Assembly: GCA_964472505.1 (NCBI GenBank)
Contig: CAYYQW010000013.1
Coordinates: 247 to 64,246 of the forward strand
Origin: an uncultured Bacteroidaceae bacterium
GTDB lineage: Bacteria; Bacteroidota; Bacteroidia; Bacteroidales; JAADGE01
Direction of reading: 5' to 3'
Length of the DNA stretch: 64,000 nt
The notes beneath the pieces were generated by a model, which was given only the letters and a program-made list of their open reading frames with translations, did not search any database and had not been told where the DNA came from. Within the stretch, counting starts at the first letter, position 1. Every line of letters starts with the position of its first letter. Positions 142 to 62,085 of this stretch are shown here, piece by piece. Made by a program: the position numbers and the translations under genes.

Positions 142-169
142 TCTGATATCTGATTTCTGACCTCTGATT
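142..169 (+). repeat. Heptamer tandem array TCTGATA TCTGATT TCTGACC TCTGATT (decayed copy of the MITE-like family)
   Basis: Strict 7-nt periodicity read directly. The 14-mer TCTGACCTCTGATT is identical to the reverse complement of 56237-56250 inside the element at 56180-56516. Confidence 0.7.
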
Positions 170-185
170 TCCAACATTTCTTCGC

Positions 186-6090: not shown

Positions 6091-6199
6091 TTGCAGACGG
6101 ATTGCAAAATTGTCTTCCGGCTTCAAGCTTAACGATAAATATTTTTGATGAGCGATTTTTAGTGTCTGAAATCTGACTTCTGATATCTGAAATCTCATT
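6091..6199 (+). repeat. Decayed copy of the MITE-like family: 27-nt conserved box plus heptamer array
   Basis: The box TGCAGACGGATTGCAAAATTGTCTTCC (6091-6117) matches the reverse complement of 56274-56300 at 23 of 27 positions. The array TCTGAAA TCTGACT TCTGATA TCTGAAA TCTCATT spans 6165-6199. Confidence 0.6.
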
Positions 6200-23817: not shown

Positions 23818-27607
<3,790 letters not shown>

Positions 27608-54985: not shown

Positions 54986-56131
54986 TTACGCTCCGTACAT
55001 CAATTCCGTGAGGGATTCGTAATCATCATCGCTTAGCTTATAATTACTGCCGCTTACTTTATTGGCTGCCATCAAATCTATTATTTCTTGCTTATGACTG
55101 CGTCCTATTCCAACTTCCGTGAGCTTAAGGGGAGCATTTATTGATTCAAAAAATTCTTCAAATTTGTGAATCATTTCATCAACATCCGATGTACCAAATA
55201 CTAACTCGCCAAGCCTTTGCAAGCGCTCCGGGCGTGTGTTTTTAATATGCTTAAACCATGCGGGATAAGCCACTGAAAGACTGGCTCCGTGGGATGTATC
55301 AAACAAAACAGATAAGTTATGCCCTATGCCGTGCACGCCCCAATCGCCGCCGTTTTTTCCCCAAGCGGTTGTTCCGTTCAGCGCCATGGCAGCCAACATC
55401 ATAATGTTTGCTCGGTATTCGTAGTTTTCAGGTTCTTGCAATACTTTCGGGCCGTAATGCATGGCTTCTTTGATTATTGAAGCAGATATTCTGTCGGCAA
55501 GCGGTGATTCACCAATACCAAAAAAATTCTCCAGAGAATGCGCTATTAAGTCAACCACTCCATAAGTTGTATGTGTAGGCGGAAGGCTGTAAGTGAATTG
55601 CGGATCGAGAAAAGATTCTTTCGGATACATATACTCACAACCATAGCCTACTTTTTCCTTTGTTTCATTATTCTGAATTACGGCAAATTGATTCATTTCA
55701 GTACCCGTTGCGGCTACTGTAAGTACTGCTATCAAAGGTACACCGGCTTTGGGTTTAATTTTTCCTTTGGCAATATCCCATACCGGCTTATTTTCTTTAA
55801 TGCTGACTGCAATATATTTTGCCGAATCAATAACACTGCCGCCGCCAAGCGCTATGATTATGTCAGTTTTGGCTTTTCGTCCGAGTTCAGCGGCTTCATC
55901 GGCATAAGTGCTTTCGGGGTTTGGTTTTATTCCCGAGTATTCGGTAATATTCATACCCGATTTTTCTAATTGATCTTTAATTATATCATAATAACCAAAT
56001 CGTTGAACCGAACCTTTTCCATATAAAAGCAAGACATTTTTACCATAAGCTTTTGCAGATTCTCCCAAAGTGTCGCATACATTTTTGCCGAAATGCAGCT
56101 TTACCGGATTATGTATTGTAAAATTTCTCAT
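54986..56131 (-). CDS. Iron-containing (group III) alcohol dehydrogenase, butanol dehydrogenase/YqhD-like
   Basis: 381 aa with GGGSVIDSAK and the His-rich metal site (HSLENFF, HGIGH). Confidence 0.88.
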   Translation of the reverse strand: MRNFTIHNPVKLHFGKNVCDTLGESAKAYGKNVLLLYGKGSVQRFGYYDIIKDQLEKSGMNITEYSGIKPNPESTYADEAAELGRKAKTDIIIALGGGSVIDSAKYIAVSIKENKPVWDIAKGKIKPKAGVPLIAVLTVAATGTEMNQFAVIQNNETKEKVGYGCEYMYPKESFLDPQFTYSLPPTHTTYGVVDLIAHSLENFFGIGESPLADRISASIIKEAMHYGPKVLQEPENYEYRANIMMLAAMALNGTTAWGKNGGDWGVHGIGHNLSVLFDTSHGASLSVAYPAWFKHIKNTRPERLQRLGELVFGTSDVDEMIHKFEEFFESINAPLKLTEVGIGRSHKQEIIDLMAANKVSGSNYKLSDDDYESLTELMYGA

Positions 56132-56179
56132 TGTATTAATTTTTTAATGTTTTGGAATTACAAGATACAAATAATCAAA

Positions 56180-56516
56180 TTGAATTAGGCATTTTATTAA
56201 TAGTTTTAACTGAAGTCTCGCAGCATAATTTGCTTTAATCAGAGGTCAGATATAAGATATAAGTATTAAGATGTAAGACAATTTTGTAATCGGGCTGCAT
56301 ATAAGAGAGTTTGCAGCGTTTTGTAAGTTCGTCGGCGTGTTATTCAGATATGTTTTTTACAAAATTATTATTATATAAACTCAAACCGGCATTTCGCAGC
56401 ATTCAATTCCCCTATCCTTCCGAAATAATCGGAACAGGCACTTCTCCAAAGGGGAATCCGAAAATAGCCGTTGTGCTGTAATTTTAATATTTGTCGTATT
56501 CATACGCCTAATTCAA
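56180..56516 (+). mobile_element. MITE-like non-autonomous element, copy A (337 bp)
   Basis: The perfect 11-bp TIRs TTGAATTAGGC (56180-56190) and GCCTAATTCAA (56506-56516) are flanked by the identical 8-bp direct repeat TAATCAAA (56172-56179 and 56517-56524). There is no coding ORF inside. Confidence 0.8.
56237..56278 (-). repeat. Heptamer array inside MITE copy A (minus strand: TCTTACA TCTTAAT ACTTATA TCTTATA TCTGACC TCTGATT)
   Basis: 7-nt periodicity read directly. It abuts the conserved box at 56274-56300. Confidence 0.7.
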
Positions 56517-56532
56517 TAATCAAATTTATTAC

Positions 56533-56564
56533 AAAAAAAACCGGAACCTTAAGTACCGGTTTTT
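56533..56564 (-). terminator. Bidirectional-looking terminator after the FGE-family gene
   Basis: Stem AAAACCGG / CCGGTTTT with an 11-nt loop. The A8 run on one side and the T-run on the other give U-tails on both strands. Confidence 0.55.
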
Positions 56565-56590
56565 ATTATTCTTCTTATCTCTGAATCGGA

Positions 56591-57394
56591 TTATTGATTT
56601 CGAACCAATCGAATGCCGGCAAGTCCGTCTTCGCTGGTTGGATCTAAATAAAAACGTTTAGTATTTCTAAGCACATCCGGACGACACATGTAGTTTCCGC
56701 CGCGGCATACTTTATCAATGCCGCTTTCCGGACCTTTGGGATTATCTTCGGGAGATTCTTTGTAGTAGTTCTCATCATACCAATCATAGCACCATTCCAT
56801 AACATTTCCGGTCATGTCGTAAAGTCCCAGTTCATTCGGCTTTTTCTCACCGACCGGGCGTTGTTTGTTGCTGGAATTGGTAATAAACCAAGCTACTTCA
56901 TCGGGTACATTGCTTCCGCTGTAAGCATAAAACTTGGATTTATTCCCGCCTTTGGAAGCATATTCCCATTCAGCCTCAGTAGGTAACCTGAATCCGTTGG
57001 CCGATTGATCAAACTCAACAACAAATCTGTTGCTGTCTCTGGTAATAGTATAGGATTTATCGAGGTTTTGTGTAGTGCTCAGCCAGTTGCAATACATTAC
57101 TGCATCGTACCAATTGACATTAACAACAGCCTGATTATCCTCACCTTTCGGTTCCTTTTTTCCCGTAACTCGGCAAAAGCGGTTGTACTGGGCTATTGTA
57201 ATTTCGTACTTGCTCATATAAAAAGAAGACAGCGTTACTTCATGTTCCGGTCGCTCATCAGAGCTGGAGCTGTAGTCATTTCCCATTCTAAAAGTCCCGC
57301 CTTCCACCAAAAGCATCTCAGGTTTTAAATCGGCTTGAGCCAACGCAAAGCCGGAAAGGAATAGCAAGGCTGACAAAAAAGTAAATAGTTTCAT
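56591..57394 (-). CDS. Formylglycine-generating enzyme (SUMF1/EgtB/PvdO) family protein, secreted
   Basis: 267 aa with a signal peptide and the motifs RLPTEAEWEYA, GNVMEWCYDW and RGGNY. Confidence 0.85.
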   Translation of the reverse strand: MKLFTFLSALLFLSGFALAQADLKPEMLLVEGGTFRMGNDYSSSSDERPEHEVTLSSFYMSKYEITIAQYNRFCRVTGKKEPKGEDNQAVVNVNWYDAVMYCNWLSTTQNLDKSYTITRDSNRFVVEFDQSANGFRLPTEAEWEYASKGGNKSKFYAYSGSNVPDEVAWFITNSSNKQRPVGEKKPNELGLYDMTGNVMEWCYDWYDENYYKESPEDNPKGPESGIDKVCRGGNYMCRPDVLRNTKRFYLDPTSEDGLAGIRLVRNQ

Positions 57395-61559: not shown

Positions 61560-61664
61560 ATTGTATTGATTAAAATGTTTGAAATTTTTTACAAATTAAA
61601 AAATTATTCGGATAACCGCAAAAGACAAATGTCAGCTACACTTAATATTTTGAATAAAAACTAA

Positions 61665-61870
61665 TTGAATTGAGCCCATGAGTTCTGCAAACTCTTATAT
61701 TCCATCCAAGTATTTATCACCGGTACCGCCAAGCTCTGCCTTAAAAAAGCCTTCTTAGAATAAACTTGTCAAAACCGAGTGCGCTTCCGATTGCCGAAAT
61801 AATTATCAGTAAATATACCTAACATTTGGAACTGAAAGAGTTATAAGTATTAGTAATCTGTCTAATTCAA
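61665..61870 (-). mobile_element. MITE-like non-autonomous element, copy B (206 bp, shorter and divergent)
   Basis: The TIRs TTGAATTGAGC (61665-61675) and GTCTAATTCAA (61860-61870) match the copy A TIR at 9 of 11 and 10 of 11 positions. They are flanked by the identical 8-bp direct repeat AAAACTAA (61657-61664 and 61871-61878). The internal block CTGCAAACTCTTATAT is the reverse complement of ATATAAGAG(AG)TTTGCAG in copy A. Confidence 0.75.
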
Positions 61871-62085
61871 AAAACTAAGAAAGCCGCAAGCATGTTATGC
61901 AGCATAAACTAATACTTCCTCGTGTTTGCAAAGCAAAGAATTCGTTTAAAAAATATAATTTCTCATATTGTTGAAAATAAGCATGTTATCCATATATAGA
62001 AAAAAATCGACACTGAGAAGGTAAAAAAATTGCTCTAAAAGCTTAAAAAACAGAGAAATTCAGAGGAATTTCAAAAAGATAATAC

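Follow-up and report, generated by a model that had tools for sequence, protein, structure and literature searches.

MITEs are non-autonomous class II transposable elements. The classical enterobacterial and neisserial MITEs (ERIC/IRU, Correia, and RUP) are intergenic, able to alter the expression of neighbouring genes, and occur as high-copy families with conserved interiors, with ends and duplications (TA for Correia) other than those reported here. Terminal inverted repeats (TIRs) combined with a duplication of fixed length but variable sequence are the signature of staggered-cut DDE transposition. Invertons are common in Bacteroidales genomes. Among the Bacteroidetes, a MITE designated BrickBuilt or MITEPgRS has been described in Porphyromonas gingivalis (PMC4596501), and within the IS4 family, the ISPepr1 subgroup is characterized by ends of the form YT-AA-YTT---A, duplications of 7-8 bp, and AT-rich targets (PMC2266710, Table 1). 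Here, we analyzed a 337-bp intergenic segment, hereafter element A, located in a 64,000-nt stretch of DNA from an uncultured Bacteroidales lineage (this entire stretch is referred to as the window). We interpret element A, with a probability of about 0.88, as a MITE inserted upstream of an ADH gene, and it is a member of an undescribed, apparently low-copy Bacteroidales MITE family.

The overall structure of element A matches the initial annotation of this DNA, which had described a 337-bp element with perfect 11-bp TIRs and a perfect 8-bp target-site duplication (Table 1). The inverted repeat is exact over 11 nt and reaches 21 nt at 81% identity when extended. The direct repeat is actually 12 nt long (AATAATCAAATT, at 56170-56181 and 56515-56526), and shares 2 nt with each of the two inverted repeats. 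Element A lacks coding capacity: as had been suggested, it harbors no plausible ORF, with no ORF of at least 100 aa overlapping it and all six reading frames closed. At gathering thresholds, an Rfam search of the window yielded only a tRNA located outside of element A, and at E <= 10 it gave nothing but noise where element A lies. The 7-nt periodic array and the nested hairpin noted earlier were also recovered, the former by TRF (56248-56278, 4.4 copies) and the latter as a folding segment with z ~ -2.8. Meanwhile, the box previously described as 27 nt long and common to element A and positions 6091-6117 is indeed shared between the two loci, but over a shorter length of 24-25 nt, with 22/25 positions identical.

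Table 1 Features of element A, its neighbouring genes, and related elements. Coordinates are window positions; L-numbers designate contigs from other genomes and metagenomes.
Feature	Position	Strand	Characteristics
Fe-ADH gene	54986-56131	-	ATG 48 nt from element A
Left target-site duplication TAATCAAA	56172-56179		Same as 56517-56524
Element A body, non-coding MITE, 337 bp, 34% G+C	56180-56516	+	ORF-free, without Rfam match, missing from four syntenic relatives
Left TIR core TTGAATTAGGC	56180-56190	+	Exact reverse complement of GCCTAATTCAA
Left terminal inverted repeat, 23 nt	56180-56202	+	0 mismatches to family end consensus TTGAATTAGGCRYTTNNNNAATA
Internal array, ~six 7-nt units (nnTMAGA)	56237-56278	+	TRF period 7
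24-nt box AGACAATTTTGTAATCGGGCTGCA	56276-56299	+	Common to 6092-6115, minus strand
Nested G+C-rich hairpin in element A	56407-56456	+	Folding
Right terminal inverted repeat	56494-56516	-	Subterminal part diverged, 3 mismatches to TTGAATTAGGCRYTTNNNNAATA
Right TIR core GCCTAATTCAA	56506-56516	-	Exact 11-nt core
Right target-site duplication TAATCAAA	56517-56524		Same as 56172-56179
FGE-sulfatase gene	56591-57394	-	Terminator hairpin ~56533-56567
206-bp element	61665-61870		Degenerate ends TTGAATTGAGC / GTCTAATTCAA; 61657-61878 including duplications
Perfect 8-bp duplication AAAACTAA	61657-61664 and 61871-61878		Flanks 206-bp element
L005 (= L013)			Duplication AATATTTA, perfect 8 bp
L007 (= L012)			Duplication ATGATTTA, perfect 8 bp
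L009 (= L015)			Duplication ATCCTTTT, perfect 8 bp
L008			Duplication TAATCCTA / TAATTCTA, 7/8
L014			Duplication GCATTTCA / TCATTCCA, 6/8

To estimate how often such a pattern would arise by chance, we generated 200 second-order Markov shuffles of the window and searched these for 11-nt inverted pairs separated by 50-1500 bp. Inverted pairs themselves were frequent, with 91 in the window and 83 on average per shuffle. Pairs with a 6-nt flanking direct repeat occurred at only 0.065 per shuffle, and none of the 200 shuffles included a pair with a flanking direct repeat of at least 7 nt, so that the pattern of element A is expected less than ~0.01 times per window. This rarity is indecisive on its own across a large scan, and comparative evidence is therefore needed. 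An inverted and a direct repeat could coincide fortuitously in AT-rich intergenic sequence, given the mean of ~83 inverted pairs per shuffled window, yet, beyond the shuffle result, such a coincidence leaves unexplained that the same ends recur elsewhere in the same pattern and that empty sites agree with the predicted boundaries to the base. With these comparative sequence data, the chance reading is excluded, and we consider its residual probability negligible.

These empty sites were obtained from relatives reached through homologues of the ADH and UDP-glucose dehydrogenase genes, which provided five contigs, including four spanning the FGE-ADH junction. Homologues of the proteins flanking element A in the window were annotated as proteins of Bacteroidales/Bacteroidota MAGs. 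The FGE-ADH gene order is kept in the four relatives, and all four lack the 345 bp that correspond to the 337-bp element plus one 8-bp duplication. Specifically, the FGE-ADH spacer is 118 bp long in L264 (92.6% identical to the window across 7.4 kb of DNA), 119 bp in L016 (85%), 124 bp in L017 (82%), and 107 bp in L018 (73%), for 459 bp in the window, i.e., 114 bp once these 345 bp are subtracted. When element A and one copy of the duplication are removed, the window becomes colinear with the relatives, terminator included, with a mean column identity of 76%. In the BLAST comparison of L264 with the window, one segment stops at 56515 and the next picks up at 56175, and this break of homology exactly at the repeats identifies the loci of the relatives as empty sites. 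Where the window, read on the strand of L264, displays ...GTAATAAA TTTGATTA (element) TTTGATTA TTTGTATC..., L264 includes ...GTAATAAACTGCATTATTTGTATC..., with a single diverged copy of the target. The target 8-mer is diverged in the related species supplying these empty sites (CTGCATTA in L264), and the exact 28-mer of the predicted empty site had no match in JGI metagenomes. Empty alleles, which the initial annotation had proposed to look for, thus exist at four syntenic FGE-ADH loci, and we consider the insertion, its boundaries, and its duplication to be established. The window and L264 represent a filled/empty-site pair with the insertion on the lineage of the window, and the insertion occurred after this uncultured Bacteroidales lineage split from its 92.6%-identical relative.

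The ends of element A also recur at unrelated loci. We scanned JGI metagenomes, in a collection excluding the window's own contig, and one genome per GTDB species for the pattern TTGAATTAGGC-N(300-330)-GCCTAATTCAA. After discarding chance and unrelated matches, five independent insertions were left, all non-coding intergenic elements of 330-344 bp in Bacteroidales/Bacteroidetes genomes or metagenomes, with a duplicated 8-mer that differs in sequence at every insertion (Table 1). The probability of an 8-bp flanking repeat at a chance pattern match is ~10−4, hence these recurrent members are genuine transposition products. Two of them (L012 and L013) are copies with ~95-97% mutual identity on different contigs of the Bacteroidales MAG AMR_MDS_2557, and a third (L015), found in another MAG, is related to these at 88-89%. 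Across family members, sizes range from 206 to 344 bp, no ORF of at least 100 aa overlaps any element, and G+C-rich hairpins comparable to the one in element A are present in other members. Conservation between members is limited to ~24 terminal nt (consensus TTGAATTAGGCRYTTNNNNAATA), and interiors are unrelated between subfamilies. Since this similarity extends beyond the 11-nt search pattern, it provides independent evidence of membership. Only a handful of members were recovered from ~600 Gb of genomes, which indicates that the family is low-copy or that its ends diverge quickly.

Several other matches were considered and rejected as family members. One (L006/L010) falls by chance within a 1630-aa NRPS ORF. 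Another (L011:3526-3868, Ga0307513_10001231) is a ~400-bp segment with the same 11-nt ends in which the flanks are also inverted complements, i.e., a long palindrome or foldback; this segment lies on a contig with 45% G+C and is unrelated to the Bacteroidales family. Finally, three IMG/VR phage contigs matched the 23-nt end consensus (L261:79-101, L262:3998-4020, and L263:11566-11588), all within what looks like one conserved coding region with conserved flanks and the translation ...KMPNSKINRNNF..., so these matches were rejected as element ends and are probably coincidental.

A second member of the family is found in the window itself, ~5 kb from element A, where it was first picked up by a match to the end consensus at 61848-61870. 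The spacer occupied by this 206-bp element is 589 bp long and separates the divergent UDP-glucose dehydrogenase and S1 genes. In a relaxed scan of the window allowing up to 3 mismatches per end and requiring a flanking repeat of at least 6/8, element A and the 206-bp element were the only two candidates with an 8/8 repeat. The right 32 nt of the 206-bp element are 81% identical to the left end of element A, and similarity between the two interiors was not significant. Homology between L264 and the window ends precisely at 61664. L264 includes an unrelated ~535-bp insert (L264:9362-9896) at the position homologous to window 61665-62023, and a third relative (L265) has neither this insert nor the 206-bp MITE, so that the spacer between the S1 and UDP-glucose dehydrogenase genes looks like an insertion hot spot. 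Overall, the recurrence of the TIR and duplication pattern both in other Bacteroidales genomes and at 61665-61870, which the initial annotation had suggested to examine, establishes family membership and, along with the empty sites, supports the MITE-like insertion proposed there. The earlier label of element A as a copy calls for some qualification: its ends do recur as a family, but only ~24 nt of these ends are common, and no second copy with the interior of element A was seen among the members recovered.

Comparing these members also helped delineate the exact ends of the elements. Most copies have A or AA before the duplicated 8-mer and TT after it, which are the same bases as the tips of the element, hence the true ends are ambiguous by up to 2 nt in these copies. 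The 206-bp element has no such TT downstream, which leaves only 8-9 bp for the duplication and sets the ends at TTGAA...TTCAA. This information is relevant to another scenario, in which element A would result from site-specific recombination at a 12-bp core, with the AATAATCAAATT repeats acting as attL and attR, and integration carried out by a tyrosine or serine recombinase instead of a DDE transposase. Such a scenario would accommodate both the 12-nt length of the direct repeat, including its overlap with the inverted repeats, and the A/AA and TT bases around the 8-mer in most members. However, the duplicated 8-mers are completely different between insertions with no conserved att core, the repeat of the 206-bp element cannot exceed 8-9 nt, and the association of TIRs with a fixed-length, variable duplication is expected from staggered-cut transposition. 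We instead read the A...TT flanks as a palindromic target preference, and regard site-specific integration as very unlikely.

The same data bear on whether element A could be an inverton, i.e., a promoter segment flipped by a site-specific recombinase to switch ADH on and off. An 11-nt perfect inverted repeat around ~315 bp immediately upstream of a gene would fit such a switch, and Logan assemblies break within the segment. However, this type of element neither needs nor creates flanking direct repeats, and the ends of element A recur at unrelated loci next to 8-bp duplications that differ. In close relatives, the segment is absent altogether and not simply inverted, and full assemblies from JGI and ENA show a single orientation: an identical element A is found in the same orientation in JGI metagenome 3300012009 (83.7-kb contig Ga0153773_1000113), from which the window comes, and in an ENA microbial-mat assembly. 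The Logan breaks are also not located at the inverted repeats, and, overall, we consider an inverton highly improbable. The Logan contigs in question (L003, L004, and L260), each from an independent short-read assembly of the same mat samples, terminate within element A at window positions 56287, 56294, and 56491, i.e., at the 24-nt box and 26 nt inward of the right end. These ends may reflect repeated k-mers or strain variants, and carry little weight as evidence of repetition given that the assemblies are fragmented elsewhere too.

The interior of element A includes short sequence modules also found elsewhere in the window. Heptamer arrays with a TCAGA core, composed of 4-6 units with variable 2-nt spacers, were identified at 142-174 (-), 6165-6197 (-), and 56237-56278 (+). 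The TCAGA heptamer pattern has 7 matches in the window for 0.15 expected. Two of the arrays are located just downstream of gene ends, on the strand of the gene, and the third is the one inside the MITE. Similarly, the 24-nt box has 2 matches in the window for 0 expected: AGACAATTTTGYAATCSGKCTGCA occurs at 6092-6115 (-) and 56276-56299 (+), and follows a heptamer array in both places, immediately adjacent to it inside the MITE and at a distance of 49 nt at the 6.1-kb locus. This identical order of array and box at both loci indicates that the MITE interior shares modules with another intergenic region. The heptamer array showed no specificity as a widespread motif, as four TCAGANN units yielded at least 120 matches in viral contigs and a control of four ACTGANN units yielded at least 120 as well. 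Separately, a 174-nt unit is tandemly duplicated at 87% identity at window positions 23879-24226, and probably corresponds to a repeated domain within a gene.

We then considered the position of element A relative to the ADH gene. As previously noted, 48 bp separate it from the ADH start codon (ATG at 56131), and this places element A, at -48, with the FGE terminator on one side and, on the other, a 48-nt block kept in relatives (96.8% identity for the L264 HSP covering this block and the ADH start). In these relatives, only ~55-65 nt extend from the FGE terminator to the ADH ATG. Because of this short spacer, the ancestral ADH promoter must have been located within these ~55-65 nt, unless ADH was transcribed by read-through. 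From this geometry, it is plausible that element A displaced the ADH promoter or now supplies it, and if this is true, the insertion would represent a case of rewired ADH expression. Searching for promoters of the Bacteroidetes type (TTTG-N19-21-TAnnTTTG) returned none that was convincingly placed, with no -33 partner in any of the sequences. A perfect TAAATTTG overlapping the duplication in the reconstructed empty site was rejected as a promoter, as it is not kept in L264 and has no -33 partner.

A position directly upstream of ADH would suit a cis-regulatory leader within the mRNA of this gene, and element A could alternatively be a structured non-coding RNA gene, with the terminal repeats forming a closing stem in either case. 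Its plus strand folds better than shuffled sequences (z = -3.7) and includes the nested hairpin, but most of this fold comes from the terminal repeats pairing with each other, and folding of the strand that would be transcribed along with ADH is only marginal (z = -1.7). In addition, no Rfam match was obtained even at E <= 10, relatives retaining both ADH and the 48-nt upstream block do not have the segment, and the interiors of family members are unrelated to each other. We thus give very little credence to a structured RNA.

For element A as a MITE, we propose that the ~24-bp repeats at its termini (consensus TTGAATTAGGCRYTTNNNNAATA) would be recognized by a transposase supplied in trans. 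AT-rich intergenic DNA would then be cut by this enzyme with a stagger of 8 bp, or 9 bp at most, and joined to the ends of the element, after which gap repair would yield the TAATCAAA duplication. This transposase may belong to the IS4 family, in the IS10/IS50/ISPepr1 clade. The fetched loci, plasmids, phages, and viral contigs yielded neither an autonomous element nor a transposase with these ends, and BLAST searches of element A, an L005-type element, and the concatenated ends against plasmids and phages returned nothing relevant. Full-text searches of the literature for the end sequence returned only unrelated primers. A more specific proposal would be that TTGAATTAGGC-ended elements form an orphan MITE family mobilized by an uncatalogued transposase lineage or by a very divergent IS4-like transposase, and that the insertion also rewired ADH expression by cutting off the ancestral promoter and substituting a hybrid or element-borne one. 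We view this combination as speculative and rather unlikely.

Taken together, these results document at base resolution how a MITE was recently inserted in an uncultured lineage of Bacteroidales, with both filled and empty sites. The end consensus TTGAATTAGGCRYTTNNNNAATA, along with the 8-bp duplication and AT-rich targets, can help annotate such elements and seek their transposase, and an insertion in the ADH promoter region offers a natural test case for regulatory change driven by MITEs. Beyond this end consensus and this regulatory test case, our analysis amounts to routine mobile-element annotation.

Among known systems, the ISPepr1 subgroup offers a potential lead as to the origin of these ends. 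The first seven positions, TTGAATT, fit YT-AA-Y, and both the duplication length of 8 bp and the AT-rich targets (TAATCAAA, AAAACTAA, AATATTTA, ATGATTTA, and ATCCTTTT) are within the description of this subgroup. When TTGAATTAGGCRY is compared to the ISPepr1 consensus line, as opposed to an actual element, it agrees at 5 of the 8 specified positions (1, 2, 4, 5, and 7) and fails at positions 8, 9, and 13. Unlike ISPepr1 and the IS10/IS50 "5'-CT end" clade, the ends identified here are not associated with any 1.5-1.6 kb element or DDE/YREK transposase that we found. These ends thus seem to only partly resemble those of IS4/ISPepr1 elements, which would suggest a lead and not membership.

Other comparisons set element A apart from invertons and from high-copy MITEs. 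As in Bacteroidales invertons, inverted repeats surround a few hundred bp directly upstream of a gene, but element A has target-site duplications, a presence/absence polymorphism, and dispersed members, and was seen in one orientation. Similarly to ERIC/IRU, Correia, and RUP, element A is intergenic and non-autonomous, whereas the interiors of its family differ between subfamilies and only the ends are common. Compared to BrickBuilt, which has IS5-type ends (GAGACC...) matching resident ISPg elements and short or irregular duplications, element A has TTGAATTAGGC ends with no matching IS known, a clean 8-bp duplication, and an apparently low copy number. Still, both are small (50-1000 bp), AT-rich, non-coding, intergenic elements with short TIRs and with filled and empty sites between relatives, and both include an internal short tandem repeat, composed of 23-nt units in BrickBuilt and 7-nt units in element A.
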